Assembly: GCA_049840735.1 (NCBI GenBank)
Contig: JASGJN010000019.1
Span: forward strand, 18,169-82,168
Origin: Anaeromyxobacter sp.
GTDB taxonomy: Bacteria; Myxococcota; Myxococcia; Myxococcales; Anaeromyxobacteraceae
Reading direction: 5' to 3'
DNA length: 64,000 bases
The first letter of the stretch is position 1. Each line of letters opens with the position of its first letter. Below, one piece after another: positions 4,746-31,639 of this stretch. The position numbers and the translations under genes are program-made. Below the pieces are notes generated by a model. That model was given only the letters and a program-made list of their open reading frames with translations, searched no databases and was not told where the DNA came from.

Positions 4746-6280
4746 ATGACGCAAGCCGAGACGAATCCGCTCCGCGCGGGGTTGGTGAGCGAAAGAAAAC
4801 CGGGGCCTTGTGTGGTGGTGATCTTCGGCGCGTCCGGAGACCTCACGAAGCGCAAGCTGGTACCCGCGATCCTTCTCGCTGTTCGAAGAAGGCTCGTTGC
4901 CCGAGTCGTTCGCAGTGCTGGGTTTCGCGCGCAAGGAGCTCGATGACGCGAGCTTCCGCGCCGAAATGAAAGAAGGCTGCGAGAAGTTCGCGCGCCGCAA
5001 ACCGAACGCGGAGACGTGGGCGAAGTTCGAAAAGAAGCTCCACTACATGGAGGGCTCGTACGAAGACGCCGCGAGCTACCGCGCGTTGGACGAGCGTTTG
5101 AAGAAGCTCGACGGCGAGCACGGCACCGGCGGCAATCGCATCTTCTATCTCTCGACGCCGCCTTCGAACTTCGCGCCGGTGGTGAAGCAGCTCGGCGACG
5201 CGAAGCTGGTGTCGCCGGGTCAGCCGAAGCCGTTCCGCCGGGTGATCATCGAGAAGCCGTTCGGCGTTGACCTTGATTCAGCGAAAGCGCTCAACCGTGA
5301 AGTGCTCTCGGTGCTCGACGAGCAGTCGGTGTACCGAATCGATCACTACCTCGGCAAAGAGACGGTGCAGAACCTGATGGTGCTCCGTTTCGCGAACGGT
5401 CTGTTCGAACCGTTGTGGAGCAGCCGCTACGTCGACCACGTTCAAATCACCGGCGCAGAGAGCATCGGCATCGAAGGCCGCGGCGGTTACTTCGAACAGG
5501 CCGGCATTCTGCGCGACATGGTGCAGAACCATCTGTTCCAGGTGCTCGCGATCACCGCGATGGAGCCGCCGGTGTCGATGAGCGCTGACGATCTGCGCGA
5601 TGAAAAAGTGAAGGTGCTGAAGGCGCTGCGGCCAATCCGCCGATGGGCGCTTCGACGACTTCGTGGTGCGCGGGCAGTACTCGAAGGGTTCGGTCTCGGG
5701 CCGTCAGCAGATCGCGTATCGCGAAGAAAAAGGCGTCGACCCGAAGAGCAATCGCGAAACCTACGTCGCGCTGAAGCTGTTCATCGACAACTGGCGCTGG
5801 GCGGGCGTGCCTTTCTACCTGCGCTCCGGGAAGGCGATGCCGAAGAAGGTCACCGAGGTCGCGCTCGTGTTCCGCGAAGCGCCGATGCAGTTGTTCGGCC
5901 GCAGCGGCGGGCAGGGCCCGAACGTGCTCGCGATTCGCATTCAGCCTGACGAAGGCGTGTCGCTGCGTTTCGGCGCGAAGGTGCCGGGCAACACGATGGA
6001 CATTCAGCCGGTGAACATGGAGTTCCGCTACGGCACGTCGTTCGGTGTCGAACCGCCTGAAGCGTACGAACGCCTGCTGCTCGACTGCATGGTCGGCGGC
6101 GACCAGGCGCTGTTCACGCGCGGTGACGAAGTCGAAGCGTCGTGGAAGTTCATCTCGCGCATTCATCAGGCGTGGGAATCGGCAAACACGGAGATTGCGA
6201 AGTACGAGGCCGGCACCGGGGCCCGGAAGAAGCGCAACCGCATGCTCGCGCGCGATGGTCATCAGTGGAGGCACCCGTGA
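4746..6280 (+). CDS. zwf: glucose-6-phosphate dehydrogenase, two apparent frameshifts (~4870, ~5640)
   Basis: [13 protein letters not shown] (NADP site), RIDHYLGKE and [19 protein letters not shown] motifs are split over ORFs 4746-4946, 4897-5949 and 5663-6280. Confidence 0.85.
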
Positions 6281-7190
6281 CCGAAACCGCGGAGCGCTTC
6301 ACGCGACACGAAGCGATTGGCGTCGACGTCGCGGCCATCGAGCGCGAGCTGGCCGCGTTGTGGCGTGAAGCGGCGCACGGCACGACCGCGGTGATGCGCG
6401 CGTGCTCGTGGAATCTGGTGGTAATGACGACTCCGGAGCAGTCGGCGCGCGCGAAGACGCTCGCTGACGTGATGGTCGAGATCGTTCCGTCGCGCACGTT
6501 GATGATCAACGAGCAGAAGACCGGCGACGACCTTCACGCGTACGTGAGCGCGAACTGCCGGTTGCTCCCCGGCGGCGGGAAGATGCTGTGCACCGAGATA
6601 TCACCCTCGAAGCCGCGGGTACGGGTGCTGATGCACTGCCGTCGCTCGTTCGTGCGCTGCTGGTGCCCGACATTTCGACGGCCGTGCTGTGCGCGGGAAT
6701 TCCTCCTGAATGCCCGCTGATTTCTGAGCTGGTCACGCGTTCACGTCGCGTCATCGTCGATTCGCGCGGAGTCGATGTCGAAGGGTTCGAAGCGTTCGGC
6801 CGCCGCGTGATCGATCTCGCGTGGCTGCGCATCGCTCCGTGGCAGCAGGTGCTCATCGCAGCGTGGGATCAGGCGCGCTTCGACGGTGAAGTGAGCGTGC
6901 GTGTTCCCGCGGGTGATGCGAGTGAAGGCCGCTGGCTCGCGACGTGGCTCGGCACGCGTCTGAAGCGTGAGGTGCACGTCGAACACGGTGAAGCCGCCGT
7001 GCTCGTTGGCAAACGTGTCATCGCCCTGCCCTCCTTGCAGCTCGACGATCGCGCGCTCATCACCGCGGCCCTCGCGACCGGCGTGGTGAGTGATGCGTAC
7101 GCACTCGCGCGCGATACGTGGCGCACCTCGGGCCGGCGCGGCATCACCAGCAACTGGGCTGACTTCAAACAGCGCTTCATCGACGCGGCG
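6277..7190 (+). CDS. opcA: OpcA-like G6PDH assembly protein, apparent frameshift near 6596; 3' end lost in the compositional junction
   Basis: The GTG at 6277 overlaps the zwf stop (GTGA). The position directly after zwf and sequences such as ELAALWRE...RACSWNLVV fit OpcA. The gene continues in ORF 6588-7445. Confidence 0.55.
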
Positions 7191-7738
7191 CACACCGCCA
7201 TCACAAGGCGATGGGCGAGGTGCAGTCGAAGATCCCGACCGAGATCCTCCTCACCGAGCGCCGCGAGTACGAGCTCTCGGAGCAGGGGCTCATCGGTCTC
7301 ACCTACAAGAAGGACACGGATAGTGCGTGCTTCTTCTCCGCCAACTCGGCGCAGCGCCCCAAGACCTTCGCCAACACCGCGGAAGGCAAGGCAGCGGAGA
7401 CCAACTTCCGCCTGGGCACGCAGCTCCCGTACATGTTCATCATGACGCGCCTGGCACACTACGTGAAGGTGCTCCAGCGCGAGCAGCTGGGCAGCTGGAA
7501 GGAGCGCGGCCAGCTCGAGCGGGAGCTGAACGCGTGGATGAGTCAGTACGTCGCGGACATGGACGACCCGGCCCCCTCGGTCCGCTCCGCGCGGCCGCTG
7601 CGCCAGGCCGAGGTGAAGGTGGAAGATGTCCCGGGCCAGCCGGGCTGGTATCGTTGTAGCCTGAAAGTGCGCCCGCACTTCAAGTTCATGGGCGCGTCGT
7701 TCACGCTGTCACTGGTGGGCAAGCTCGACAAGGAATGA
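7163..7738 (+). pseudogene. tssC: TssC (VipB, T6SS sheath large subunit) C-terminal fragment only (~175 aa)
   Basis: GEVQSKIPTEILLTERREYELSEQGLIGL...LPYMFIMTRLAHYVKVLQREQLGSWKER...YRCSLKVRPHFKF matches only the last third of TssC. No N-terminal part lies upstream. Confidence 0.8.
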
Positions 7739-8756: not shown

Positions 8757-10504
8757 ATGTTCTCGAAGCACTACCAGTCCGAGCTGCAGTTCCTCCGCGC
8801 CATGGGCAAGGAGTTCGCCGCCGCCTATCCGTCGGCGGCTGGCCTGCTGGCCGATCGCGGCGGGGACCCCGACGTGGAGCGGCTGCTGGAGGGGTTCGCC
8901 TTCCTCTCCGCGCGCGTCCGCGAGCGGCTGGACGACGCCGTCCCCGAGCTGATCCACCACCTGGCGGAGGTGCTGGCGCCGCAGGTGATCCGCCCATCCC
9001 CGCCGCCACCGTGGTCGAGTTCCAGCCGCTGCCCGGCGCGCTGCGCGCCCGGCAGACGGTGCCGGCCGGCGCCGAGCTGGGCTCCGCGCCGGTGGACGGC
9101 GTGAGCTGCCGCTTCCGCACCACCGCGCCGCTCGACCTGGTGCCGGTGACGGTGCAGGACGCGGCCCTCGACCAGGCCATCGGCGCCTCGCCGGCGGTGC
9201 GGCTCTCGCTGCAGTGCCCGGCGGCGGCGCTGCCCACCGTGCTGCACGACGACGGGCTCCGCTTCTTCATCCAGGGCGACCTGCCGCTCGCCTCCACCGT
9301 GCTGCTCTGGCTGGCGCGCCACCTGGCCGACGTCCGGCTCCGGGCCCCCGCCTCCGGCAAGGTGATCTCGCTGGGCGCCCGCGCGGTGCACTTCCCGGGC
9401 TTCGGCCCGGAGCTGCCGCTCCTGCCCTGGCCGGCGCTGGCGCCGGCCGGCTACCGGCCGCTGCTGGAGTTCTTCGCGCTGCCGCAGAAGTTCCTCTTCT
9501 TCGACGTGCGCGGGCTGGGCGCCGCCCGGGCGGCCTTCGCCGAGGAGAAGCTGGAGCTGGTCCTCCAGTTCTCCCGCCCGCCCGAGCTGCCCGGCCGGAT
9601 CGGCCGCGACCTGTTCCGCGTGAACTGCGCCCCGGTGGTGAACCTGTTCTCGGCCACCGGCGATCCCATCCGCGTGACCGCGCCGGGCGAGGAGCACCTG
9701 CTCCGCGCGTCCGGCCTGGAGCCGCGCCAGGCCGAGGTCTACACCGTGGACGCCGTCACCGGCGCGCCGGACGCCGCCGGGCGCCGCCGCGAGTACCCGG
9801 CCTTCGCCAGCTTCGCCCACGGGCTGGCGCGCCCCGGCGCCGGCTACCACCGGGTCCGGCTGCAGCGGTCGGTGCTGGACGACGGGCTCGACACCTGGCT
9901 CACGGTGATGACGCCGCGCGACGGCGGCCCCGGCCCGGCGGAGGAGATCCTCTCCACCGAGCTGACCTGCACCAACCGGTCGCTGGCCGGCCGGCTGAAG
10001 CTGGGCGACGTGAACGTCTCCACCCAGACCTCGCCCACCGTGGCCCGGTTCAGGAACGTCCTCCCCGTCACCTACCCGGCGCGCCCGCCGCTGGGCGGGG
10101 ATCTCCAGTGGCGGCTGCTCTCGCACCTGGCCGCGAGCCGCGCCTCGCTGGGCCGGGTGGAGGTGCTCCGCACGGCGCTGGAGCTCTACAACTTCCCCGC
10201 GCTGGCCGACCAGAACGCCGGGCGCGCCAACCAGCTCCGGGTGGACGGCGTGCGCGAGGTGGAGGCCGTCCCCACCCACCGGCTGGTGCGCGGCGCCTCG
10301 GTCTCCGGGGTCCGCTTCCGGCTGGTGCTGGACGAGCAGCACTTCGCCGGCCCCGGCGACGCCTTCATGTTCGGCGGCGTGCTGGACGCCTTCCTGGGCG
10401 CCCACGCCCCCATGAACACCTTCGTCGAGCTCTCGGTCAGGCTCGAGCCCTCGCTGCGCGAGTACACCTGGGCGCCCCGCAGCGGGGCGAGGCCGCTGCT
10501 GTGA
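8757..10504 (+). CDS. tssF: TssF baseplate protein, apparent -1 frameshift at a C-run near 8995
   Basis: The N-terminus YQSELQFLRAMGKEFAAAYP...LLEGFAFLSARV is in ORF 8757-9104. The gene continues as IPAATVVEFQP... in ORF 9011-10504. The span length is not a multiple of 3. Confidence 0.85.
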
Positions 10505-11559
10505 GCGACGGGCTCCCGCCCGCCCCGGCCACCGCGCCCGGCCCCACGCCGGAGGAGCGCGAGCGCGCCGCGCGCGTCGAGGCCGCACGGCGGCAGGGCT
10601 TCGTGCCGCTGCTGCTCCTGCTGGACCGGCTCTCGCCCGGCGCGCTGGACGTGGGCGGCGAGGCCGCGCCCGAGGCGGAGCGGATCCGCTTCCGCCACGA
10701 TCCCTCGCTGGCCTTCGCCCCCAGCGACGTGGTGGCGGTGAAGGAGCGGTCCGGCCCGGAGGAGGCGCAGCCGCGCTGGGACATCACCACCACCTTCCTG
10801 GGCGTGACCGGCACCGTCTCGCCGCTGCCGCCCTACCTGGCCGAGGAGGTGGCGCAGGAGGATCCGGCGGAGCAGCGCAACCGCGCCTTCCTGGATCTCT
10901 TCCACCACCGCGCCATCTCCTTCCTGGCCCGCGGGCTGCTCGCCTACGACCCCGCGGCGGCCCACGGCGCCGGCTCGCACGACCCCTGGTCGGGGCGGCT
11001 GCTCTCCTGGCTCGGGCTGGACGGCCCGCTCGACGGCGAGGCCGCGGCCGAGCTGGGGCTCTCCGACGCCGCCGCCCGCGCCGTGCTGCTCCGCGCCTCG
11101 GCGCTGCTGGCCGAGCGCGCCCTGACCGCCGACGGCCTGGAAGCGCTCCTCAATGACGCCATGCGCGAGGAGCTGGGGCCGGAGGGGCGCATCACGGTGG
11201 AGCAGTTCGTGGGCGCGTGGCTGCCCATCCCGCCCGACGACCGGACCAGGCTGGGCCAGGTGGCCAGCGGGCTGGGCACCTCCATGGTGCTCGGCTCGCG
11301 CGTCTTCGACCGCAGCTGCAGAATCGACGTGGTGGTGGGGCCGCTCGATCGCGGCGGCTACCAGCACTTCGCGCTGGACCTGTCGGTGCAGGGGCGGCTG
11401 CGGGCGGTGATCGCCCACGTCACGCGCGGTGACGTCGCCTACGACCTCGTCCTGGTGCTGGCGCCCGACGCCGCGCCGCCGGCGCAGCTCGGCGCCGCCC
11501 GGCTCGGGCGCGACGCGTGGCTGGGCCGGCAGGCGGCCCTGGCGCGGGTCCGGGTCTGA
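10501..11559 (+). CDS. tssG: TssG baseplate protein
   Basis: The GTG at 10501 overlaps the tssF stop (GTGA). FVPLLLLLDRL...RIRFRHDPSLAF...LGVTGTVSPLPPYLAEE is TssG-like. Confidence 0.85.
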   Translation: MSDGLPPAPATAPGPTPEERERAARVEAARRQGFVPLLLLLDRLSPGALDVGGEAAPEAERIRFRHDPSLAFAPSDVVAVKERSGPEEAQPRWDITTTFLGVTGTVSPLPPYLAEEVAQEDPAEQRNRAFLDLFHHRAISFLARGLLAYDPAAAHGAGSHDPWSGRLLSWLGLDGPLDGEAAAELGLSDAAARAVLLRASALLAERALTADGLEALLNDAMREELGPEGRITVEQFVGAWLPIPPDDRTRLGQVASGLGTSMVLGSRVFDRSCRIDVVVGPLDRGGYQHFALDLSVQGRLRAVIAHVTRGDVAYDLVLVLAPDAAPPAQLGAARLGRDAWLGRQAALARVRV

Positions 11560-11579
11560 CCAGGCGGGAGCGTTCGCAC

Positions 11580-12626
11580 GTGGGCCACCCCAACCTCGAG
11601 AACCGGACGCCGTACGCCTTCGAGCCCGTCTTCGTCTCCGACGAGGAGGGCCGGCCGCTGCTGGTCGCGGCGGTGAAGGGCACCTGGGACCTGGGCCCGG
11701 CCGTCCCGGCGCTGGCGGAGGAGCAGGCGCCGCTGGAGCTGGCCGGCGTGCCGCACGGCGAGGACCCCGCCAGCTCCAGCTGGAGGTACGAGCCCGAGGG
11801 CGGCTGGCTCAAGCCGGCCACCGACGTGGTGCTGGTGGGCAGCGCCGTCGCCCCGCGGCCGCGCACCGCCGAGCTGCTGGTGGCGCTGCAGGTGGGCGCG
11901 CTGCGCAAGGGCGTGCGGGTGCTGGGGGATCGCGCCTTCTACCGGTCGGTGGCGTCGGTGGGCATGACCGCGCCGGTCCCCTTCGAGCGGATCCCGCTGC
12001 AGTGGGAGCGCGCCTTCGGCGGCTGGGACCGCTCCAGCCCGGACGAGCGGAGGCACACCTGCGAGTTCCGCAACCCGGTCGGCCAGGCCTTCCGCGCCGG
12101 CGGCGCGCGCTTCGAGGACGGCGTCCGCTGCCCCAACCTCGAGGACCCGGCCCGCCCGTTCAAGGGCTGGGGCGACGCCCCGCCGCCGGCCGGCTTCGGC
12201 TTCGTCTCGCCGGACTGGGAGCCGCGGCGCAGGCTGGCCGGCACCTACGACCAGCGCTGGGAGGAGGAGCGGGCGCCGCTCCTGCCGCGCGACTTCTCGC
12301 GCCGCTTCCTCTCCGCGGCCTCCGCCGGGCTGGTGGCACCCGGCTACCTGCGCGGCGACGAGCCGGTGGCCGTGGCCGGGGTGACGGCGCAGGGGGGCCT
12401 GACCTTCAAGCTGCCAGGCTTCGAGCCGCCCAGGGTGAAGGTGATCCGGCGCAACGCCGCCGACGGGACCATCGCCACCCAGCTCGACACCGTCATCATC
12501 GACACCGACGCCATGAAGCTCTTCCTGATCTGGAAGGGCGAGGTGGTGCTGCAGCGCGAGCCGACCGAGGTGCAGTCGCTGGAGATCACGCAGGCCGGCG
12601 GGCCGGCCGCCCGGGACGCGGCGTAG
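11580..12626 (+). CDS. DUF2169-family protein (T6SS spike/PAAR accessory)
   Basis: GTG at 11580 with GGGAG 9 nt upstream. NLENRTPYAF...KPATDVVLVGSAVAP...VLGDRAFY...ERAFGGWD...AGTYDQRWEEERAPLLPRDF matches the DUF2169 pattern. Confidence 0.8.
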   Translation: MGHPNLENRTPYAFEPVFVSDEEGRPLLVAAVKGTWDLGPAVPALAEEQAPLELAGVPHGEDPASSSWRYEPEGGWLKPATDVVLVGSAVAPRPRTAELLVALQVGALRKGVRVLGDRAFYRSVASVGMTAPVPFERIPLQWERAFGGWDRSSPDERRHTCEFRNPVGQAFRAGGARFEDGVRCPNLEDPARPFKGWGDAPPPAGFGFVSPDWEPRRRLAGTYDQRWEEERAPLLPRDFSRRFLSAASAGLVAPGYLRGDEPVAVAGVTAQGGLTFKLPGFEPPRVKVIRRNAADGTIATQLDTVIIDTDAMKLFLIWKGEVVLQREPTEVQSLEITQAGGPAARDAA

Positions 12627-12643: not shown

Positions 12644-13108
12644 ATGCCTTCCAGCGTGGGCGTGAACAAGCTCTCCATCGTCAACGCCGACACCAACGGC
12701 GTGACGATCGCCTTCCCCGACGTGTGCAAGACCCCGAGCCCCGGCGGCCCGGTGCCCATCCCCTACCCGAACATCGCCAAGTCCTCCGACACGTCCAAGG
12801 GGACCAAGAAGGTGAAGGTGGAGGGAAAGCCGGTCTGCATCCAGGGCTCGACCTTCGCCATGTCCACCGGCGACGAGGCCGGCACCGCCGGCGGCGGCGT
12901 CGCGTCCAACAAGATCAAGGGGCCGGCCGAGTTCGTGAACTACTCCTTCGACGTGCAGCTGGAGGGGAAGGGGGCGGCGCGGTCGTTCGACCTGATGCTG
13001 CACAACCAGAAGAACACGCCGCCCTTCCCGGTGCTGCAGGGGCCGGTGATCGCGATCGGGAAGATGAAGGGCACGGAGAAGTGCCTGGTCTGCGAGAAGG
13101 AGCTCTAG
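12644..13108 (+). CDS. DUF4150 PAAR-like protein, stand-alone (no toxin extension)
   Basis: ATG at 12644 with an AGGAGCGAGG RBS. FPDVCKTPSPGGPVPIPYPNIAKSSD...VKVEGKP...STGDEAGTAGGGV is the DUF4150 signature. The protein is 154 aa and ends CLVCEKEL. Confidence 0.8.
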   Translation: MPSSVGVNKLSIVNADTNGVTIAFPDVCKTPSPGGPVPIPYPNIAKSSDTSKGTKKVKVEGKPVCIQGSTFAMSTGDEAGTAGGGVASNKIKGPAEFVNYSFDVQLEGKGAARSFDLMLHNQKNTPPFPVLQGPVIAIGKMKGTEKCLVCEKEL

Positions 13109-13111
13109 GCC

Positions 13112-13609
13112 ATGGCCCAGCGCGCGCGGAAGCCCGAGGTGCACCTGCTGGAGCGCGCGGCCGCCGCACCGGCGGTGGGCCGCGTGGTGTCGTTCGAGCG
13201 GGGCGTGGTCCGGGTGGAGCACGCCGGCCACACCGGCGGCCCGCTCCGCGCCCGCACCTCGGCGGCGCTGGACGACGCCGCGCTGCAGGCCGCGGCGCAC
13301 GGTCAGCAGGAGGCGCTGCTCGTGTTCGAGGGCGGCGACCCCGCCCGGCCGGTGGTGGTGGCGTTGCTCCGCTCCGAGACGCCGCTCACCGACGCGCTGC
13401 TGGCCGGCCCGCTCCCGCGCGCCGGGAAGACGGCGCGGCTGGACGGGAAGCGGGTGGAGCTGGAAGGGCAGGACGAGGTGGTCCTGAGGTGCGGGAAGGC
13501 CAGCCTCACGCTCCGGCGCGATGGCAAGGTGGTGCTGCGCGGGGTGAACGTGGTGACCCAGGCCGATCAGGTGCACAAGGTCAGGGGTGGAAAGGTGCAG
13601 ATCAACTGA
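13112..13609 (+). CDS. small gp5/VgrG-like protein (OB-fold-like N-terminus plus short beta-helix-like C-terminus; DUF6484-like, tentative)
   Basis: 165 aa. VGRVVSFERGVVRVEH...ALLVFEGGDPARPVVVALL is followed by VELEGQDEVVLRCGKASLTLRRDGKVVLRGVNVVTQADQVHKVRGGKVQIN, which resembles the VgrG/gp5 tip repeat. Confidence 0.5.
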   Translation: MAQRARKPEVHLLERAAAAPAVGRVVSFERGVVRVEHAGHTGGPLRARTSAALDDAALQAAAHGQQEALLVFEGGDPARPVVVALLRSETPLTDALLAGPLPRAGKTARLDGKRVELEGQDEVVLRCGKASLTLRRDGKVVLRGVNVVTQADQVHKVRGGKVQIN

Positions 13610-13634: not shown

Positions 13635-14768
13635 ATGGCCCATTCCCAGGGCGCACTCCCGATCACCGGCATCGGCCTCGCGTCGAGCCTCGGCGTCGAT
13701 GCCGTGGGCGCCTGCGCGGCCGCGCGGGCCGGGATCACCCGCGTCTCCGAGGGGGACGGCGCGTTCGTGGTGCTCGACCGCGAGGCCTTCAGCGTGGTCC
13801 CGGTCGCCGGCATGCCGGTGGGCAAGCTCACCACGGGATTCGCCGAGCTGGGGCGCTGGGTGCGCCTCGGCGGGCTGGGGCTGGGAGATCTGCTGCGCCG
13901 CCACCCGCTCACCCCGGCCGAGCTGGCCGAGACGGCGGTCCTGCTGGCGCTCCCGGGCGATCACCTGCTCACCGCCGCGGCCGCGCTCCGCAAGCAGCGA
14001 GGGGCTCCGGCGGAGCCAGGTGGCCCGACCTATCAGGAGCTCGTCCCCTACTATCGCAGCGAGCTGCCCGCCAAGCTGTTCCGCGCGGTGAGCCGGCCGG
14101 CGCCGGCGCATGCCGAGGTCTTCTTCGAGGACGAGCCGGGCTTCCTGCGGGCGCTGGTGCGGGCGCGCCAGCTGCTCGAGGAGCGCAGGGTGAGGCGCTG
14201 CCTGGTGGGCGGCATCGACTCGCTGCTCGAGCGGTCGTGGCTCGACGCAGCGTTCGAGCTGGGGCTCCTCAAGACCGCCACTCGTCCCACCGGGTTCATG
14301 CCCGGCGAAGCGGCCGCGTTCCTGCTGCTCGAGGGGGAGACAGAGGCACGGCGGGCGGAGCGGCCGGTGCTGGCGCGGCTGGAGGGGATCGAGGGGCGGC
14401 CCGAGGCTGAACGCGGGAAGGTGGTCGGCTCGAGAGGACGCGCGCTGGCGGAGCTCATCGGGGCCTCGCTGCGTCAGGCCTCTCGCCCCTGCAGCGGCTT
14501 CTACTGCAATCTCAACGGTGACTCCGGCCGCGCCCAGGAGTGGGGCTTCGCGCTGGTGCGCTTGCCGCAGGAGGCGCACCCGGCCGCCACCTTGCTACCG
14601 ACGCTCTCCTTCGGCGAGACGCGCAGCGCCTTCGGTCCGCTCGCCGCCTGCATGGCCGTCCGCGCCTTCGCGCGCAAGTACGCACCTTCCGACTCGCTCC
14701 TGGTCTGGCTCGCCTCCGAGGCGGGCGGGCGCGGGAGCTTCGTCGTCACGCGGGAGCGCCGAGCATGA
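13635..14768 (+). CDS. beta-ketoacyl-synthase/thiolase-like protein lacking the catalytic triad (copy 1)
   Basis: 377 aa with a KS-like layout (ITGIGLASSLG, VGGIDS, GFMPGEAAAFLLLE, FGETRSAFGPLAA). By-eye alignment puts FFEDEPGF at the A-C-x-S-G site, NLNGDS at HGTGT and GETRSAFG at GHxxGAAG. Confidence 0.7.
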   Translation: MAHSQGALPITGIGLASSLGVDAVGACAAARAGITRVSEGDGAFVVLDREAFSVVPVAGMPVGKLTTGFAELGRWVRLGGLGLGDLLRRHPLTPAELAETAVLLALPGDHLLTAAAALRKQRGAPAEPGGPTYQELVPYYRSELPAKLFRAVSRPAPAHAEVFFEDEPGFLRALVRARQLLEERRVRRCLVGGIDSLLERSWLDAAFELGLLKTATRPTGFMPGEAAAFLLLEGETEARRAERPVLARLEGIEGRPEAERGKVVGSRGRALAELIGASLRQASRPCSGFYCNLNGDSGRAQEWGFALVRLPQEAHPAATLLPTLSFGETRSAFGPLAACMAVRAFARKYAPSDSLLVWLASEAGGRGSFVVTRERRA

Positions 14769-15457
14769 GCGGGAACAGCGAACACACGCCCAAACCCGTC
14801 GAGATGAAGGGCGTGTTCGAGCGGAACGAGGAGTACCGCGACAACTGCCAGGGCGGGTGCAAGGGCGGCTACCACGGGCACCGCTGGGACGCGCACCACA
14901 TCCTGCCCTGCACGTCGTTCTCGGAGGCGAGCGCGTTCGTGCGCCAGTGCCTGGAGGCGACCGACTACGACATCAACAAGACCTACTCCATGTGCGGCCT
15001 CCCCCGGCTGACCGCGTTCATCCTCTACTTCCAGTCGGACAAGAGCATCCCGTTCGTGTTCGACCGGGAGCGGACGGTCACCATGCGCCGGTGGGGGAAG
15101 GTGGCGCAGTACCTCAAGGACCAGGGCAAGCCGGTCGTCTTCCCGGGAGAGCTGCCGGTGCACAACCCAGTGCACTGGGGGCACACCGACTACAACGTCC
15201 AGGTCGCCAAGTCGCTCAAGCAGAACGTGTTCAAGCAGATCATGGTCCGGGCGAGGCAGGAGAAGCACTTCAAGCCAGAGGAGATTCGGGCGCTCCTGGA
15301 AAAGGAGCGGCAGAGCTTCTGGAACCAACTCCAAGAAATCCCGCGCAAGCCCGGCGGGGGTGGGCTGACGGGAATCGAGAACAACCTCAGGCACCGATAT
15401 GACTCCGCCCGCGACGGCTGGTGGAAGCCGATGTGCATGACGGAGACCATCAGCTGA
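14765..15457 (+). CDS. AHH-family (HNH/EndoVII fold) nuclease toxin, copy 1
   Basis: The ATG overlaps the upstream stop (ATGA at 14765-14768). Motifs are RWDAHHILP, DYDINKTYSMCGLP and HWGHTDYN. The protein is 230 aa with no recognisable trafficking domain. Confidence 0.7.
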   Translation: MSGNSEHTPKPVEMKGVFERNEEYRDNCQGGCKGGYHGHRWDAHHILPCTSFSEASAFVRQCLEATDYDINKTYSMCGLPRLTAFILYFQSDKSIPFVFDRERTVTMRRWGKVAQYLKDQGKPVVFPGELPVHNPVHWGHTDYNVQVAKSLKQNVFKQIMVRARQEKHFKPEEIRALLEKERQSFWNQLQEIPRKPGGGGLTGIENNLRHRYDSARDGWWKPMCMTETIS

Positions 15458-15508
15458 AGCACCCATCTCACCCAGCCTCGCCTGAGCGGATCAGCGGCCG
15501 GAGCCTCC

Positions 15509-16091
15509 ATGCCCTTCGTGCAGATCCTCGACGACCTTCGACGCCAAGACGGCCCGTTTCAAATCCGTCAAGGGGTTCGAGGACACGTTCGAGTTCCTGA
15601 TGGGAATCCCGGTAGCCGACCATTTCCCGTCCGATGCCACGTTCGAACGATGAGCGAGGACTTCCCGGACCGGATCGCCTTGCAGGACTTCCTGCCGAAT
15701 GAGGACAGCGTGCTCGTCGTGAGCGAGCGGGTGTTGCGGATCCTGGAGGCGGAGAAGGTTCAGCACCTCGAGTACCTTCCCGTCCGTGTCGTCAACCACA
15801 AGGGGCGCAAGGTCCCGGAGCCGTATTTCATCCTGAACCTCCATCCCTTCGTGGACTGCGTCGATCAGAAGCAGAACCAGGTTCCAGCTGAACGACGTGA
15901 ACCCGGACGTGTGGTACGGCGTCACCGACCTGACCCTCCGGGAGGACGCGGTCCCGGCGGACTACAAGCTCTTCGGCGTTCCTCGGATCCCGGGGCTGGT
16001 CATCGTCGAGCAGGAGCTGGGGGACAAGCTGAGGGGGGCCAAGCTGGAGGGCTTCAGGCTGGTCGAGCTTTCCAAGGCCGAGGAAATCTAG
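15509..16091 (+). CDS. Imm11 (DUF1629)-family immunity protein, copy 1, reading frame broken about 3 times
   Basis: DFPDRIALQDFLPNEDSVLVVSERVLRILEAEKVQHLEYLPV and the C-terminus VWYGVTDLTL...LEGFRLVEL parallel the intact paralogues at 28428 and 30159. Shifts lie near ~15530, ~15645 and ~15880. Confidence 0.6.
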
Positions 16092-16141: not shown

Positions 16142-16945
16142 ATGGAACCCATCTCCGAATGCTGTGAAGACCTGGTCGTCCTCCTGAACGCCCACGCCAC
16201 GGCCGCGGACAAGGCGCCGACGGTGGAGGACCGGGTAAGGGCCGCCGACGCCGCCTGCGCCTACTACCAGGGTGTGGGGATCTGCGAGCTGCTGCTGGAC
16301 GCCGAGGTGGATGCCTTCTTCCACCACTTCATCCGCTCGGCGCAGTCGCGCCGGTGGGTGCTGCAGCAGCGCCCTGGCCCTCTGGGCACGGTCCCATCCG
16401 TCTCCGGGATCATGAAGGCCAGCAACACGCGCGGACTGTTCGCGGCCATGGCGGCCGGCCAGTGGCGCCTGGCCGAGGACATCGCGCGCCTGTCCCCCGA
16501 CGCCTGGAGCGCGGCGGACGAGTACGAGGACGACTTCTGCTACGCGTCCTTTCTCCACGGCCACCTGCTCGGCGCCGCGCACGACCAGCTGGACGCGATC
16601 CTGGCGCGGTTCGAGAAGGCGCTGGAGGGCGGCGAGGCGGTCCGGCGGGACCTGTGCCGGGCGCTGCTGGCCAAGGAGGCCAGCGCCCTCCTGGCCGCGT
16701 TCGACGCGCTCATCGCCGAGCGGGACGAGCACCTGGCCAAGCTGCGCCAGGGGCCGATGTGCCGGGACTCGCTCTTCACGCCCTTCGCGTCGGTGTACGT
16801 GGAGGGGCTGGCCTGGCTGGCCCTGCTGGAGCGCGCCGGCGTCGCCACGCCGGCCGAGGTGGACTACTGTCCTGCGCTGGTGCGCACCACGGCCTTCGCG
16901 CCCTTCGTGCCCAGCTCCTTCCCGGGGTTGCCGCTGGAAGGCTGA
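16142..16945 (+). CDS. all-helical putative immunity protein (Imm49-like, tentative), paralogue 1
   Basis: 267 aa. It shares the pattern DEYEDDFCYASFL ... ALEGGEAVRRDLCRALL ... VYVEGLAWLALL with four other ORFs in the island. Confidence 0.5.
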   Translation: MEPISECCEDLVVLLNAHATAADKAPTVEDRVRAADAACAYYQGVGICELLLDAEVDAFFHHFIRSAQSRRWVLQQRPGPLGTVPSVSGIMKASNTRGLFAAMAAGQWRLAEDIARLSPDAWSAADEYEDDFCYASFLHGHLLGAAHDQLDAILARFEKALEGGEAVRRDLCRALLAKEASALLAAFDALIAERDEHLAKLRQGPMCRDSLFTPFASVYVEGLAWLALLERAGVATPAEVDYCPALVRTTAFAPFVPSSFPGLPLEG

Positions 16946-16961: not shown

Positions 16962-17766
16962 ATGGGTCGGATGTTCGAGGCGGCAGAAGACGTCGAGATC
17001 CTCCTGGCCAGCCACGTGGCCGCGGCTGCGCAGGCCCCGGAGCTGGCGGACCGGCTGACCTCGGCGGACGCGGCCAGCACCTACTACCAGGGCCTCGCCA
17101 TCTGCGAGCTCCTGCTCGAGCGCGACGCGGACGCGTTCTTCCACGACGCCATCCGCAGCGCGCAGTGCCGGCACTGGGTGCTCCGGCACCGGACCGGGCT
17201 TGGCGACCCGGCGCCGCTCGCGGGCATCCTCAAGGCCAGCAACACGCGCGGACTGTTCGCCGCGCTGCTCTCGCGGCAGTGGCGGCTGGCGGCGGCGATC
17301 GCGCAGCACGCGTCGACCGACTGGAGCAAGCGCGACGAGTACGAGGAGGACTTCCTCCACGCCCACTTCCTGCATCGCCGTCTGCTCGGCGCATCGCCCG
17401 GCGAGCTCCAGGAGAATCCTGCGACGCTTCGAGGTGGCGGTGCAGGGCGGCGAGGCGCCGCGGCTCGACCTCTGCCAGGCGCTCCTGGTGCGCGATGCGG
17501 CGGCGGCGGAGCAGGCGTTCGCGGCCCTCATCGTGGAGCGCGGGCAGGAGCTCCAGAAGCAGAAGCGGGCTGGCCTCGACGCCGACAGCCTGTATCTGCC
17601 GTTCTCCCGGGTCTACACGGAAGGGCTGGCCTGGCTGGCGCTGCTCGATGAAGCAAGGATCGGGATCGCGGGTGAGCTGGACTACTGTCCCCAGGCGGCC
17701 CGGGCCGCGGTCTACGCGCCCTTCGTGCCAGGCCCGTTCCCATCGGAGCCGCTCCCGGGGAGCTGA
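16962..17766 (+). CDS. all-helical putative immunity protein (Imm49-like), paralogue 2, frameshift near 17412
   Basis: Tandem to paralogue 1. It carries DEYEEDFLHAHFL, AVQGGEAPRLDLCQALL and VYTEGLAWLALL, split over ORFs 16962-17651 and 17200-17766. Confidence 0.5.
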
Positions 17767-18836: not shown

Positions 18837-19071
18837 AGGGAGCTAACCCCTCGTGAAGACACCCGGGGTGACGAGGGGCGGCGCTGCGGCGCAACGGCGC
18901 ACGAGTGTCGGCTTGCCTGGGTGATTTCACCACTGTACCGTCGGTGTAATCCGGATCCGGGCGGTACCCTGCCAGGCTCACCACCACGGTCGCGCGGTTC
19001 GATTGGCCGTGAGAGGCCTGTCTGCTCGCGCGTCGAGGCGGGCTTCGCGCCGGAACCGAGAAGGACCGGCC

Positions 19072-22197
<3,126 letters not shown>

Positions 22198-23350: not shown

Positions 23351-25207
23351 ATGACCCGCAACCGCGCCCTCCGCGTCCCGACGCTGCTGCTCCTCCTCCT
23401 CGCCGTCGCGCTCGGCGGCCTCGCCTGCAGCAAGGGCGAGGGCACCCTGTGCGCCAGCGGGCGGTTCTGTCCGCCAGGCTCGCAGTGCGCCGTGAGCGAC
23501 GACGCCTGCATCTGGGATGGTTGCGGGGACGGCCACGTGGACGACTCGCCCGACCCGGACCCGGCCCGCGCCGGCAAGCCGCTCGAGGTGTGCGACGACG
23601 GCAACCTCCGGAACGGCGACGGCTGCCGCCTGGACTGCAAGTCGGACGAGACCTGCGGAAACGACGAGGACGACCCGGACGTGGGCGAGGTCTGCGACGA
23701 CGACAACAACGACGACGGCGACGGTTGTAGCGCAGACTGCCGGTCGACGGAGGCCTGCGGGAACACGATCCTCGATCCTGGGGAGGTCTGCGACGGAGGA
23801 CCGAGCGGCATCCCGGACGTGGGGATGGAGCGGGCCTGGTGCAACGACGACTGCACCGCGGCCCGCTGCAACGACGGCAAGGTGAACGAGGCGGCCGGAG
23901 AGCAGTGCGACCGGAACGGCGACGGCGTGCCCGGCAGCAGCGGCCAGTCGGCCACCTGCAACGTGAACTGCACGGCGAGCGTGTGCGGGGACGACTTCAT
24001 CAACCCGCAGGCGCTGGAGGAGTGCGACCGCGGGCCTGGGATGAACAGCGACAGCGGCGACTGCCTGACCAGCTGCAAGGTGAACGTCTGCGGAGACGGG
24101 TACCCCAATGACACGCTGGTGGGGGGGCGTCCGCGGGAGGAGTGCGACGCGGGGAGCGGCAACTCGGACACGGGCGCGTGCACGACGGCTTGCAAGAACG
24201 CCGTCTGCGGCGACGGGCACGTGCAGGCGGGGGTGGAGACCTGCGACGAGGGGTCGGGGAGCGTCTCGGAGAAGACGGCGTGCCCGTACGGGCAGACCAC
24301 CTGCACGGTGTGCAGCGCGTGCCAGACGGTGACGCTCACGGGGCCGTACTGCGGGGACGGCACCCAGCAGAACCCGCCCGAGGCCTGCGATCAGGGTACG
24401 AGCAACGGCGCGACCACGTGCGCGTACCACCAGGATCCGTTCACGTGCCAGAACTGCAACGCGGTGTGCACGGCGTACGTGCCGGTGGCGGCGCCGTACT
24501 GCGGGGACGGGAGCACTAACGGTCCGGAGGCGTGCGACGACGGGAACACGGTGAACGAGAGCTCCTGCGCGTACGGCCAGGCCAGCTGCGAGGGTTGCCG
24601 GAGTGACTGCCTGGCCAAGCTCACGTTGCAGGGGGCGTACTGCGGGGACTTCCACGTGGACTCGGGGGACGGGGAGGTCTGCGACAGCAGCCAGTCGTTC
24701 GCGTGCGGGGTGTGCATTCCCGCGGGTCAGACGGGGGCCTGCACGTTCTATGGGAACGGCACGTCCGGGAGTCAGCTCGCGGCGGCTGAAGGCGCGCTAT
24801 TGGTTTCGGGGCTGGGGTTGGTGGGCGTGACCTTCACGCTTGGAGACGACGTAAACACCTCCCCTTGGACATTCGAGTTCGTGGACGGCGGGCCTGCCCA
24901 GCCAGGGAACGTACCGATCAGCATCACGGGTATGGCGAACACGGGAGACGTGGCAGGCGCCATCCTTGCGGCGCTCCCCGCGACGCTGCGGATTGACGCG
25001 ACCGTGAGCGGGAGCGAGGTGAGGCTGGTGAACCGGGTGACGGGGATCGTTGGCAACCTGCCGATCGAGATCGCGCCGGCAGGGACGACAGCGTTGACGG
25101 GTACGGGGATGGGCGGCGGCCGGGGCTGTGGGGCCGGTCAGGCGTGCTCGCGTGATCGGGACTGCGTGAGCTTGAACTGCCGCCCGAGCCATACCTGCGG
25201 CACGTGA
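23351..25207 (+). CDS. lipoprotein with multiple myxococcal cysteine-rich repeats (DUF4215/TIGR02232-type)
   Basis: The lipobox is LGGLACS. Repeated CGDG...E.CDDGN...GDGC...C units run through most of the 618 aa. Confidence 0.75.
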   Translation: MTRNRALRVPTLLLLLLAVALGGLACSKGEGTLCASGRFCPPGSQCAVSDDACIWDGCGDGHVDDSPDPDPARAGKPLEVCDDGNLRNGDGCRLDCKSDETCGNDEDDPDVGEVCDDDNNDDGDGCSADCRSTEACGNTILDPGEVCDGGPSGIPDVGMERAWCNDDCTAARCNDGKVNEAAGEQCDRNGDGVPGSSGQSATCNVNCTASVCGDDFINPQALEECDRGPGMNSDSGDCLTSCKVNVCGDGYPNDTLVGGRPREECDAGSGNSDTGACTTACKNAVCGDGHVQAGVETCDEGSGSVSEKTACPYGQTTCTVCSACQTVTLTGPYCGDGTQQNPPEACDQGTSNGATTCAYHQDPFTCQNCNAVCTAYVPVAAPYCGDGSTNGPEACDDGNTVNESSCAYGQASCEGCRSDCLAKLTLQGAYCGDFHVDSGDGEVCDSSQSFACGVCIPAGQTGACTFYGNGTSGSQLAAAEGALLVSGLGLVGVTFTLGDDVNTSPWTFEFVDGGPAQPGNVPISITGMANTGDVAGAILAALPATLRIDATVSGSEVRLVNRVTGIVGNLPIEIAPAGTTALTGTGMGGGRGCGAGQACSRDRDCVSLNCRPSHTCGT

Positions 25208-25224: not shown

Positions 25225-26376
25225 ATGGGAGGTCCAGACATGTCGAGCAGGCAGATCGGGACGGCGGCGGTGATCGGCCTCATGGGGGTGTGGGCCGCGT
25301 GCACCAGCGACGGAGGGGGTGCGAGCCCGACCGTGCTGGTGAGCGGCGGGCATCGCCAGAGCTGCGCGGTGATCGAAGGGCGTGCGTCCTGCTGGGGCAG
25401 GAACGATTACGGGGCTCTGGGTGACGGAACCCACACCAGCCGGAGCATGGCGGCCGGCGTGCTCGGGTTGGATGCCGGCGTGACGCGCATCGGCACGGGC
25501 GGGGACCATGCGTGCGCCGTGCAGGGAGGCGCACTCTTGTGCTGGGGCTCAAACGTCGACGGGCAACTCGGCACCGGCGCGGATACGGAGAGCGTGAGCA
25601 CGCCTGCAGCGGTCGCAGGAATCGGTGAGGTGCAGTCCCTGGCGCTCGGGTGGGACCACACCTGCGTCGTGGATGCGGCCGCCGGGAAGTGCTGGGGCAA
25701 CAACCATGGTGGTCAGCTCGGCATCAGTGGGGTGGGGTTGAGCCGTAGTCCGGTGACCGTCCCCGGGCTGGAAGCCGGGGTGACCGCGATCACGGCGGGA
25801 TATCGCCACAGCTGTGCCGTGGTGAACGGGGCGGCGAAGTGCTGGGGCCTGAACGATCACGGACAGCTCGGAAACGGAAACACCACCAACAGCACCACTC
25901 CTGTCCAGGTCGAAGGGCTCACGAGCGGGGTGACGGCCATCGCTGCAGGCTACGCCCATAGCTGCGCCGTCGTGAGCGGAGCAGTGAAGTGCTGGGGTTG
26001 GAACGGTGAGGGCGGGCTGGGCGATGGGACGCTCACCGAGCGCAGTGCGCCAGTGCAGACGCTGGGGCTGACGAACGGCGTGACGGCAGTAGCCGCAATG
26101 GCAGGCAGCGGGTGTGCGCTGGTGGGTGGAGCCGTGAAGTGTTGGGGCGACAACGAGGACGGATCGGTTGGGGATGGGACGAACGTGAACCGGGTCGAGC
26201 CTGTGCAGGTGGAGGGGCTGGAGAGCGGTGTCAAGGCACTCGCGGCTTACGGCTACACTGCGTGCGCGAACGCATCGGATGTGGTGAAGTGCTGGGGCCT
26301 GAACCAGTTCGGCCAGGTCGGGGACGGCAGCGCGACCAGAAGCCTGAACGCACCCGTTCCCGTCACTGGCTTGTAG
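25225..26376 (+). CDS. RCC1-repeat (beta-propeller) lipoprotein
   Basis: The lipobox is VWAACTS. About seven repeats of H.CAV..G...CWG.N..GQLG.G follow. Confidence 0.8.
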   Translation: MGGPDMSSRQIGTAAVIGLMGVWAACTSDGGGASPTVLVSGGHRQSCAVIEGRASCWGRNDYGALGDGTHTSRSMAAGVLGLDAGVTRIGTGGDHACAVQGGALLCWGSNVDGQLGTGADTESVSTPAAVAGIGEVQSLALGWDHTCVVDAAAGKCWGNNHGGQLGISGVGLSRSPVTVPGLEAGVTAITAGYRHSCAVVNGAAKCWGLNDHGQLGNGNTTNSTTPVQVEGLTSGVTAIAAGYAHSCAVVSGAVKCWGWNGEGGLGDGTLTERSAPVQTLGLTNGVTAVAAMAGSGCALVGGAVKCWGDNEDGSVGDGTNVNRVEPVQVEGLESGVKALAAYGYTACANASDVVKCWGLNQFGQVGDGSATRSLNAPVPVTGL

Positions 26377-26414: not shown

Positions 26415-27506
26415 ATGAGCACGCTCGCGATCCGAGCCATCGGGCTCTCGACCCCGCTCGGCGGCGGGGTGCAGGCGTGCGCCGCGGCCCGTGCCGGGAT
26501 CTCTCGGCCTGGCCCGGCGCCTGACGTGACCGTCATGTTCCCGGGGGACGAGGAGCCGCAGCCGGTCACGGTGCACGCCCACCCGACGGCGACGCAGGGG
26601 TTCACGGGGGCGGGCCGGCTCATCGCGCTGCTGCAGGAGGCGTTGATCGACCTGGTGTACTCGGTGCCCGCGACGACGTGGGCGAGCCGCACGCGGCTGT
26701 TCCTCGCCCTGCCCGATCCGCTCTGGCGCGAGCCGGAGACGCTGGACGAGGGCGAGCGTGAGCTGCCGGCCGAGGAGCGGATCGCTGCGCTCGGGCAGAA
26801 GGTGGTGAAGGGCGTGTGCGCGGCGACCGGGCTGCCGCTCCAGCAGCTCACGCCTTCGTTCCACGGCGGGGACGAGCTGGCCTTCTCGCACGCGCTGGTC
26901 GCCGCAGCGCGCGCCCTGGAGGCCCGGCAGCTCGAGACCGCCCTGGTCTGCGCCGCGGACAGCCTGGTCGGCGCAGACACGCTCGAGCTGTTCGCCGCAG
27001 AGGGGCGGCTCAAGCACGGCGACCAGCCGGTCGGGTTCACTCCCGGCGAGGCGGCCGGCGCGGTGCTCCTGACGGCGCCGGCTCGCGGCCAGGCGTCGTT
27101 CACGGTCGCGCCGCCCGCCATCGCTGTGGACGCGTGGCGCTGGGGTGCCGAGGCCCCCTCCGATGGCCGGAAGCTGGCGGGTTGCTTGGTGAGCGCGGCA
27201 GCCGCGGTCCCACCGAACATGCCGCTCGCGTTGGTCTCGGATTGCGACGGGGAGACCCACCGGGCGCGCGAGCTCGGGCTGGCGCGGGTCCACCTGAAGC
27301 GGCGCCACCCTGGGCTGGCGGAGTCCGAGGTCAGATACCCGGCGCTAGCCTTCGCGCGGACCGGCGTGGCCTCCGGGCTGCTCGGCCTGGCGGCTGCGCG
27401 GCATGCGCTCTGGCGCGAGAAGTCGGCGCCGCGCCACTTCATCGTGGCGAGCAGTGCCGACGACGGGAAGCGGAGCGCCTTCCTGGTGACGAGGACGACG
27501 GCATGA
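26415..27506 (+). CDS. beta-ketoacyl-synthase/thiolase-like protein lacking the catalytic triad (copy 2)
   Basis: 363 aa. It carries IRAIGLSTPLGGGVQACAAARAGIS, LVCAADSLV and GFTPGEAAGAVLL. GGDELAF lies at the Cys site, SDCDGET at the first His motif and FARTGVASG at the second. Confidence 0.7.
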   Translation: MSTLAIRAIGLSTPLGGGVQACAAARAGISRPGPAPDVTVMFPGDEEPQPVTVHAHPTATQGFTGAGRLIALLQEALIDLVYSVPATTWASRTRLFLALPDPLWREPETLDEGERELPAEERIAALGQKVVKGVCAATGLPLQQLTPSFHGGDELAFSHALVAAARALEARQLETALVCAADSLVGADTLELFAAEGRLKHGDQPVGFTPGEAAGAVLLTAPARGQASFTVAPPAIAVDAWRWGAEAPSDGRKLAGCLVSAAAAVPPNMPLALVSDCDGETHRARELGLARVHLKRRHPGLAESEVRYPALAFARTGVASGLLGLAAARHALWREKSAPRHFIVASSADDGKRSAFLVTRTTA

Positions 27507-28411: not shown

Positions 28412-28427
28412 GCGTTGGCTGAACGGT

Positions 28428-29012
28428 ATGAACTACTGGATCATTGCGAGGGATGCACCGGAGGGAGGTCTCATCGACTCCTACCCCGCGGACGGGCCGG
28501 AGGACTTCCTGTGGGATCGCGGAGAGCCGCTCGCGGCAGCCTATCCCCCGAATGCGTGCGTGCAGTTCTCAGACAACTTCCCTGACGCACGACAGCTGGA
28601 GGACTTCCAGCCCAACATCCTGAACGCGCTCATCGTGTCTCCGAAGGCGCAGGAGGTGCTCCAGGGGCTGGAGCTGAAGAACGTCGAGTACCTCCCGGTG
28701 GCGATCCGGGACCATCGGGACGAGGTGATCGCCTCCGACTACGCCTTCGTGAACGTGCTCGGAAGCCAGCCCGCGATCGACATGGAGAGGTCGGTCTACC
28801 GGATGGGCTCGCTCGACAAGACGCAGATAACCCGAATCAAGAACCTCGTGCTCCAGCCTCAGGCCATCGCCCCGGACGCGAAGCTCTTGCGCTGCACCAC
28901 GTACATGACGCTCTTCCTGATCCGCGACGACGTGCGCGAGGCGTTCGAGCGCGCGCAGCTCACCGGCTACCAGCTCATCCAGCCGGACGGCTGGGACGGC
29001 CTCATCATCTGA
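28428..29012 (+). CDS. Imm11 (DUF1629)-family immunity protein, copy 2
   Basis: Intact 194 aa with NFPDARQLEDFQPNILNALIVSPKAQEVLQGLELKNVEYLPV...LTGYQLIQ. Confidence 0.7.
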   Translation: MNYWIIARDAPEGGLIDSYPADGPEDFLWDRGEPLAAAYPPNACVQFSDNFPDARQLEDFQPNILNALIVSPKAQEVLQGLELKNVEYLPVAIRDHRDEVIASDYAFVNVLGSQPAIDMERSVYRMGSLDKTQITRIKNLVLQPQAIAPDAKLLRCTTYMTLFLIRDDVREAFERAQLTGYQLIQPDGWDGLII

Positions 29013-29015
29013 CCC

Positions 29016-30144: not shown

Positions 30145-30158
30145 GCCAAGGAGGCGTG

Positions 30159-30743: not shown

Positions 30744-30767
30744 CCCTGGAGTGGACTTGGAGGCGCC

Positions 30768-31618: not shown

Positions 31619-31639
31619 GGAGCGGGCCGCGGGTTCCCT

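Follow-up and report, generated by a model that had tools for sequence, protein, structure and literature searches.

A 64,000-nucleotide stretch of a metagenome-assembled genome (MAG) of Anaeromyxobacter sp., part of contig JASGJN010000019.1 and here called the window, contains a gene for a β-ketoacyl synthase (KS)-like protein that overlaps a gene for an AHH-type nuclease toxin, downstream of genes for the spike of a type VI secretion system (T6SS). The family of the KS-like protein has been described before. From gene neighborhoods, Liu et al. (2020) proposed PRK06147, as the family is called in NCBIfam, as a novel T6SS adaptor; in the passages of that paper considered here the commonest toxins downstream of PRK06147 were Tox-GHH2 (54.5%) and AHH (23.6%), many downstream effectors were without a PAAR fusion, and some clusters consisted of PRK06147 and an effector alone (PMC7714669). 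Sachar et al. (2025) counted the “thiolase-like” gene, along with DUF6484 and armadillo-like genes, among those that define DUF2169 synteny type A, and cited transposon data according to which each gene of the Proteus mirabilis pef cluster is required for killing (PMC11883445). Monlezun, Earl and Coulthurst (EMBO J, 2026) named PA0098 of Pseudomonas aeruginosa TvpD and described it as a PAAR-domain co-chaperone of the Class II Tvp type; in their AlphaFold2 model the Tse7 PAAR domain is surrounded by a groove that TvpD makes with the DUF2169 protein TvpA, on a trimer of the DUF6484 protein TvpC (PMC13373197). In Myxococcus xanthus, MXAN_0050 and MXAN_0049 are an AHH nuclease-immunity pair with T6SS- and PAAR-dependent delivery, for which DNase activity and its neutralization were shown (PMC12077131).

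We read the locus in the window as a form of this spike module in which a small PAAR protein and a separately encoded AHH DNase take the place of the usual PAAR-toxin fusion, the KS-like gene stays with the toxin, and its product, a TvpD-family pseudo-KS, acts as a toxin-proximal adaptor. To this statement as a whole we give a probability of about 0.5. Its parts differ in strength: the KS-like protein is very probably a TvpD-family pseudoenzyme and a T6SS accessory protein, and its place in the Class II Tvp/DUF2169 synteny type A spike module is firm; that it would be a direct toxin-binding adaptor has, judged from sequence, slightly less than an even chance. The genes concerned are the following.

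11517–12626, forward strand: DUF2169 protein, a TvpA-type PAAR chaperone (Pfam DUF2169, E 1.6e-84).
12644–13108, forward strand: DUF4150/Tox-PAAR-like spike tip of 154 residues, without a toxin extension (Pfam Tox-PAAR-like, E 5.1e-42).
13112–13609, forward strand: DUF6484 protein, a TvpC-type short VgrG mimic of Class II Tvp (Pfam DUF6484, E 1.5e-13).
13635–14768, forward strand: KS-fold pseudoenzyme of 377 residues, a divergent member of the PRK06147/TvpD family (NCBIfam, profile against PDB, AlphaFold2, Foldseek, triad census).
14765–15457, forward strand: stand-alone AHH-type (HNH/EndoVII) nuclease toxin of 230 residues, coupled through ATGA (motifs, hhalign, AlphaFold2).
15509–16091, forward strand: Imm11 immunity gene, disrupted (Pfam Imm11, E 9.5e-10 on the middle piece).
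16142–16945, forward strand: Imm49-family gene, the fourth invariant member of the cassette (Pfam Imm49, E 1.7e-08).
16962–17766, forward strand: second Imm49 paralogue, frameshifted (reading frames, homology).

The KS-like open reading frame (ORF) runs from an ATG at 13635 to a TGA at 14766–14768, and the toxin ORF from an ATG at 14765 to 15457, so that the four bases ATGA at 14765–14768 are common to the stop of the one and the start of the other. This overlap, and every sequence motif quoted for the two ORFs in the initial annotation, was found again in the window. NCBI also annotates the KS-like protein (P0001) with 377 residues, and it is identical to the hypothetical protein QM767_15910 of an Anaeromyxobacter MAG, encoded on a contig of 110,734 bp. 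With 2625 cluster representatives among its homologues at E ≤ 1e-30, the ORF is not a chance one. For the toxin, PGAP begins at M14 and gives 217 residues. We prefer the coupled start at 14765, because 39 homologues align from M1, which is at least 90% conserved, because a GGGAG lies 8 nucleotides 5′ of 14765 and none ahead of M14, and because the same 4-nucleotide overlap recurs in nine further cassettes (the second one of the window and those of loci L001, L002, L003, L010, L018, L043, L044 and L045).

Against NCBIfam the KS-like protein matched NF004798 (PRK06147.1), the model that defines PA0098, with E 1.4e-41 and 142.8 bits, the runner-up model reaching 1.2e-05. As 142.8 bits lies under the equivalog cut-off of 342, the protein belongs to a divergent subfamily and is not an equivalog. 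The initial annotation had named the P. aeruginosa vgrG1b/tse7 locus as a parallel; PA0098 falls in the same NCBIfam family and has the same partner families. Its description of the protein as a candidate new adaptor is anticipated by the adaptor proposal of 2020 (PMC7714669) and by the co-chaperone role under which TvpD was named in 2026 (PMC13373197).

On its own, Pfam does not settle the KS fold. Pfam ketoacyl-synt (PF00109) gave E 0.06 and 13.4 bits, under its cut-off of 20.8, and the C-terminal ketoacyl-synt domain of Pfam gave no match in the protein. A profile built from an alignment of 41 homologues (A1) matched KS structures in the PDB with E 2e-13. The AlphaFold2 model of the protein had a predicted local distance difference test score (pLDDT) of 93.8 and a predicted template modeling score (pTM) of 0.93, and Foldseek placed KS/chain length factor (CLF) pairs and FabF as its best matches in the PDB (TM ~0.7, E ~1e-18), the CLF structures 1tqy and 6kxd among them. 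In type II polyketide synthases (PKS) the CLF, or KSβ, is paralogous to KS, lacks the nucleophilic Cys and acts through protein-protein contacts. CLF differs from the present protein in that it pairs with an active KS for polyketides, and here there are no KS, acyl carrier protein (ACP) or PKS genes.

The KS-like protein has the KS fold without the Cys-His-His triad, whose positions hold E167, N294 and E328. In the profile comparison with human mitochondrial β-ketoacyl-ACP synthase (KAS), the residue following the catalytic Cys aligned with the column following E167, which puts E167 (14133–14135) opposite the Cys itself. In that with Streptococcus pneumoniae FabF, the His of the AHGTS motif fell on N294 and that of the GH motif on E328. 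A census of 229 family sequences found His (95), Gln (44) or Glu (25) at the Cys position and never Cys, Asn at the first His position in 209 of the 229, and Glu (109) or Asp (98), 207 together, at the second; the residues that replace the triad are thus conserved in their own right across the family. The relatives with the classical gene order in L026, L036 and L039 have H/N/D at these positions. From the census and these relatives we conclude that KS chemistry was lost anciently and family-wide. The by-eye reading of the initial annotation, which had a KS-like layout, a Glu in place of the nucleophilic Cys, both catalytic His motifs replaced and hence a pseudoenzyme, agrees with these alignments at each position, and the profile alignment revealed no intact triad. 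The explicit census may be a small addition to the literature, because the word “catalytic” is absent from PMC7714669, PMC11883445 and PMC13373197.

The toxin is likewise divergent. Pfam AHH (PF14412) matched toxin 1 with E 0.012 and 16 bits, under the cut-off of 22.3, and only 1 of 40 close homologues matched at E ≤ 0.01. Aligned by hhalign with those cassette toxins that do pass Pfam AHH, toxin 1 gave a probability of 97.8% and E 6.8e-13, with its AHH, N..LP and H..H..Y motifs over the same motifs of the Pfam-positive toxins (alignment A6). A43, H44, H45, N71, G78, P80, H133, H140 and Y143 were invariant or nearly so among 40 toxin sequences. The toxin-1 subfamily has an insert of about 40 residues and a conserved GWWKPxCM tail. 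The AlphaFold2 model of toxin 1 had a pLDDT of 91.7, and Foldseek found no fold match for it in the PDB that would confirm an HNH fold. Toxin 1 has no PAAR, Rhs or MIX-type N-terminus, as first supposed, and its AHH motif lies at residues 43–45. The Pfam searches suggested at the outset identified Imm11 (E 9.5e-10), with ketoacyl-synt and AHH remaining sub-threshold.

Outside the nuclease core, the tail of the toxin-1 subfamily reads GWWKP(M/L)CMS...P.SPSL (residues ~212–230, nucleotides 15400–15457; alignment A5), with W219, W220, P222 and M225 invariant. Toxin 1 of the window stops 8–10 residues early, without the SPSL end, and more distant cassette toxins have the tail variant W-Y-x-P-F-S-M. 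The GWWKPxCM tail could possibly be a recognition motif.

DUF2169, DUF4150 PAAR and DUF6484 genes all lie directly upstream of the KS-like gene, and together with the coupled AHH toxin and Imm11 they bear out the T6SS spike-accessory context that had been proposed. The DUF6484 gene, between the PAAR and KS-like genes, had been overlooked. The DUF2169 protein is 51% identical to that of Nitrospira locus L045 in an alignment that begins at 11580, and its true start is probably near 11577.

Set against PA0098 in the vgrG1b-tse7 locus (PMC13373197), the locus shares the NCBIfam model, the DUF2169/TvpA, DUF6484/TvpC and DUF4150 PAAR partners and the position of the KS-like gene directly upstream of a toxin-bearing gene, and the classical relatives in L026, L036 and L039 are also without a KS triad. 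It differs in the score of the KS-like protein (142.8 against the 342-bit cut-off), in gene order (PA0096–99 is DUF6484-DUF2169-KS-PAAR::toxin; here it is DUF2169-PAAR-DUF6484-KS), in having a small PAAR and a separate coupled AHH ORF where that paper reports PAAR-toxin fusions (Tse7, Tox-GHH2) for Class II, and in having no adjoining vgrG. The adaptor proposal of Liu et al. rests on the same bioinformatic inference as the initial annotation, PRK06147 standing beside PAAR/VgrG and directly upstream of toxins; catalytic residues are not discussed in that paper, and the passages searched contain no description of the four-gene block of KS-like, AHH, Imm11 and Imm49 (PMC7714669). Synteny type A and the pef cluster share the four accessory families DUF6484, DUF2169, thiolase-like and ARM/HEAT-like, but PefE is a DUF4150-containing effector (PMC11883445), whereas here the effector is separate and the HEAT-like gene lies ~19 kb off. 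By description MXAN_0050/MXAN_0049 resembles the locus in its stand-alone AHH DNase, its immunity gene, its separate single-domain PAAR and the presence of several paralogous loci in one genome; that work does not deal with a KS-like gene (PMC12077131). TsmK (AsaB), the pseudo-ketoacyl synthase of the Acinetobacter T6SS, is by description another non-catalytic KS fold serving as a T6SS accessory, but it stabilizes the TssM/TssL membrane complex, is largely confined to Acinetobacter and keeps one catalytic His (PMC10564176).

PRK06147/TvpD is the least understood part of DUF4150-PAAR spikes, its role being drawn from neighborhoods, one AlphaFold model and old transposon data. Because the type of locus described here separates the PAAR from the toxin, it makes testable the question of whether the pseudo-KS follows the spike or the cargo. 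We scanned one genome per species, which yielded 43 loci, and added two loci with Pfam-labelled genes, from Pyxidicoccus and Nitrospira. Loci were annotated with hidden Markov models (HMMs) grown from the window proteins, and the 33 KS-like genes with enough flanking DNA were counted. The loci were mostly from Myxococcota, the others from Rhodothermales/Bacteroidota, Planctomycetota, Methylococcaceae and betaproteobacterial MAGs. Two of them, L001 and L010 (BNCN01000005.1, titled “Comamonas sp. KCTC 72670”), are myxobacterial-type cassettes 45 kb apart, whose proteins are 53% identical to those of the window and group with Myxococcaceae; the organism label looks doubtful.

An AHH gene lay directly downstream of the KS-like gene in 24 of the 33 well-flanked loci, and was then accompanied by Imm11 and Imm49 in 24 of 24, in members of several phyla. 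Among these AHH-type cassettes a PAAR gene was directly upstream of the KS-like gene in 10/24 and within 8 kb in 20/24; DUF2169 was within 8 kb in 18/24 and DUF6484 in 14/24. In this sample KS-like homologues do co-occur with toxin-immunity pairs and, mostly, with spike genes, as the neighborhood statistics called for at the outset were to establish. Four of the 24, the second cassette of the window included, had no spike gene at all within 8 kb. In nearly all loci the KS-like stop was -8 to +40 nucleotides from the toxin start. The classical order, with a PAAR gene directly downstream of the KS-like gene, was seen in five loci, all distant relatives (L026, L036, L037, L039 and L042); it does not hold in the window, where the order is DUF2169-PAAR-DUF6484-KS-AHH and the gene after the KS-like gene is a toxin without PAAR. 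In Nitrospira locus L045 the same genes are found inside a complete T6SS cluster with an adjoining VgrG.

The proteins of these loci also diverge to different degrees. Mean pairwise identity was 72% for the PAAR and 48% for DUF2169, and 32% for the KS-like protein and 28% for AHH, toxin and immunity proteins together ranging from 28 to 39%. Clustering of the KS-like proteins reproduced the toxin subtypes, the first KS-like protein of the window (KS1) grouping with the partners of toxins with the GWWKPxCMS tail and the second (KS2) with L031 and the 300-residue toxins. The window itself has two KS-like/AHH cassettes for one shared PAAR set, the second of which, with the repeats that follow it, is listed here.

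26415–27506, forward strand: KS-like paralogue KS2, sharing 28% identity with KS1 (HMM and sequence comparison).
27503–28411, forward strand: AHH toxin 2, 302 residues, AHH domain at residues 147–245 (Pfam AHH, E 1.7e-10, 41.3 bits, above the gathering threshold).
28428–29012, forward strand: Imm11 of the second cassette, intact (Pfam Imm11, E 5.5e-06).
29111–29800, forward strand: Imm49-like gene of the second cassette (HMM and tblastn matches).
About 29860–30129, forward strand: orphan AHH C-terminal fragment without the AHH motif (HMM/homology).
30141–30743, forward strand: orphan Imm11, intact (Pfam/HMM).
31019–31489 and 32395–33013, forward strand: orphan Imm49 fragments (HMM/tblastn).
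33133–34287, reverse strand: HEAT/ARM-like repeat protein (tblastn, 41.5% to a 438-residue protein of L044; weak HEAT_2 match).

Again the toxin start overlaps the KS-like stop by ATGA (27503–27506), and no PAAR, DUF2169 or DUF6484 gene lies within 8 kb of the second KS-like gene. An ORF at 27607–28422, considered as toxin 2, was in the wrong frame; the true toxin 2 is that at 27503–28411. The region 26415–33013 as a whole is a typical polymorphic-toxin displacement array.

Taken on synteny, these observations lean towards a pseudo-KS that follows the cargo and, indirectly, towards its contact with the toxin. Because the KS-like gene stays with, couples to, diversifies like and duplicates with the toxin, we favor a toxin-proximal adaptor that would also dock on the PAAR/DUF2169 cap. 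The pseudo-KS would be co-produced with the toxin through the coupled ATGA junction, hold it, and dock it, together with DUF2169, onto a PAAR tip pre-assembled on the DUF6484 trimer; the loaded cap would be handed to a VgrG encoded elsewhere. After firing of the T6SS the AHH nuclease would cut target DNA, and Imm11, possibly with Imm49, would shield kin. The roles of TvpA, TvpC and TvpD in this scheme are taken from the literature (PMC13373197, also the source of the TvpC role of DUF6484); we infer the physical binding of KS-like protein to toxin and the order of assembly. A further step can be put forward only tentatively: in this clade the pseudo-KS may have switched from PAAR co-chaperone to cargo-specific adaptor, with one paralogue per AHH subtype and a shared small PAAR, and a toxin segment such as the GWWKPxCM tail might possibly be taken into the remodelled former active-site pocket.

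Several results weigh against an adaptor that goes with the toxin. The only published structural model, that of PA0096-PA0097-PA0098-Tse7(PAAR), places TvpD at the PAAR domain and has the toxin domain face away (PMC13373197). Mirror-tree comparison of KS-like with toxin identities gave a rho of just 0.05–0.22 for the full toxin, for the N-terminal part and for AHH plus the C-terminal part alike, which lends no support to co-evolution, at identities that are saturated near 30%. Simple linkage of neighbors could explain the matching KS-like and toxin subclades. In L005, L006 and L012 no AHH gene directly follows the KS-like gene, and the scan patterns came from 14 close homologues, which biases the locus sample to this clade. 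The guanine-plus-cytosine (GC) content falls exactly at the KS-like/toxin boundary, from 73–75% to 63–64%, and the drop and the orphan modules jointly suggest an exchange of toxin-immunity units that leaves the KS-like gene behind. The Imm11 frameshifts, the tssC truncation and the absence of vgrG from the window, taken up below, mean that the system may be inactive in this MAG; the tssC truncation beside opcA and the missing vgrG also leave it possible that the system is incomplete in the host.

One alternative is the published TvpD model, in which the KS-like protein is purely a PAAR co-chaperone, shielding the DUF4150 tip with DUF2169 on DUF6484 and making no contact with the toxin, which would join the spike either by binding PAAR or VgrG itself or with the help of a further factor, for instance the HEAT-like protein. 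The placing of PA0098 on the PAAR with the toxin protruding away, the weak identity correlation, and the position of the PAAR gene, which immediately precedes the KS-like gene in 10 of the 24 AHH-type loci and immediately follows it in the five classical ones, all fit it. We nevertheless think it unlikely, if a serious alternative, given that four cassettes, the second of the window among them, have a KS-like gene and toxin without PAAR, DUF2169 or DUF6484 within 8 kb, that two divergent KS-like paralogues face one PAAR in the window, that the KS-like protein is 32% conserved against 72% for the PAAR, and that translational coupling is with the toxin and not with the PAAR.

Fusions of the KS-like protein also occur naturally. 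Seven homologues (P0106, P0112, P0127, P0135, P0142, P0178 and P0204; 816–843 residues) join an N-terminal HEAT/ARM-like part to a C-terminal KS-like part, and fusions of the KS-like protein among the top 150 representatives were of this HEAT/ARM-like kind only, none being to PAAR, DUF2169, DUF6484 or AHH. In Pyxidicoccus a HEAT-like homologue sits between DUF2169 and the KS-like gene. These arrangements hint that the KS-like protein may work together with the HEAT-like protein.

Alternatively, the locus could be a decaying or inactive remnant, in which the KS-like and AHH genes are intact and the system no longer fires or needs immunity. Imm11 was expected as the next gene, and a Pfam match at that position agrees with this; the ORF is not intact, being spread over three frames by ~3 single-base frameshifts near 15536, 15650 and 15880, of which the first two cancel out and none lies within a long homopolymer. 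The second Imm49 is frameshifted too. Upstream of DUF2169 are a tssC fragment, hcp, tssE, tssF and tssG. TssC (6588–7738 region) is reduced to its last 175 residues (VipB positions 255–301 and VipB_2), directly after an opcA-like gene; tssF (8757–10504) changes frame near 8994; tssA, tssB and the N-terminus of tssC are missing, the cluster has neither clpV nor vgrG, and within the 64-kb window as a whole a vgrG homologue was not detectable. The gap could reflect a truncated T6SS cluster or a misassembly. Set against decay is the housekeeping gene zwf (4897–6280), which has one frameshift, as do tssF and the second Imm49; since zwf is broken as well, assembly indel errors are the better explanation, the MAG assembly appears to contain ~1 indel per 1–2 kb, and pseudogene calls in the window are unsafe. 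Further, the KS-like, AHH, PAAR, DUF2169 and DUF6484 genes are all intact, and vgrG and other core genes may sit beyond the 64-kb window. We regard a remnant as unlikely, and it would bear on activity in this strain and not on the function of the protein family.

A separate function of the KS-like protein, paired with Imm49, is very improbable, whether as a second secreted effector or as a binder of a ligand in the remodelled pocket (H60, K213, N294 and E/D328). KS-like identity covaries with that of Imm49 (rho 0.44–0.48) about as strongly as AHH with Imm11 (0.40–0.44), Imm49 is present in 24/24 cassettes, and the polar residues of the former active site are conserved (N in 209/229, E or D in 207/229). 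Linkage can produce the correlation, however; no KS-like gene accompanies the AHH C-terminal fragment, Imm11 and Imm49 of the orphan modules, an arrangement that links Imm49 with the toxin; classical TvpD loci are without Imm49, and no toxin-like feature was seen in the KS-like protein. That it is an active condensing enzyme or decarboxylase for a lipid or polyketide, for which only the fold and a legacy annotation as “3-oxoacyl-ACP synthase” speak, has next to no chance and is rejected on the triad census, the nucleophilic Cys occurring in 0/229 sequences and both catalytic His being replaced family-wide where KSQ-type decarboxylases retain both, with no ACP, acyltransferase, ketoreductase (KR) or dehydratase (DH) genes in the labelled neighborhoods, a result that also removes the lipid or polyketide partners considered in the initial annotation.

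Overall GC content of the window is 72–78%, as in the KS-like genes and flanks, and that of the toxin and Imm11 genes is 62–67% (14800–16000 and 27400–29200). Between the two toxin cassettes lie a Ser/Thr kinase fused to an nSTAND1 nucleoside triphosphatase (1064 residues, 19003–22197), a 618-residue ORF without a Pfam match (23351–25207) and an RCC1-repeat protein (25225–26376).

As things stand, the finding mainly re-discovers a published idea; mildly new are the split-effector, four-gene form of the cassette and the evidence for a KS-like gene that goes with the cargo and not the spike. If the pseudo-KS is a cargo-specific adaptor, a portable cassette of adaptor, toxin, Imm11 and Imm49 would let one spike carry interchangeable nucleases. 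If it is confirmed to follow the cargo, the KS-like gene would reliably mark T6SS cargo toxins of the stand-alone type in Myxococcota, Nitrospira, Planctomycetota and Bacteroidota, and the family would provide a clear case of an enzyme fold reused as an adaptor.

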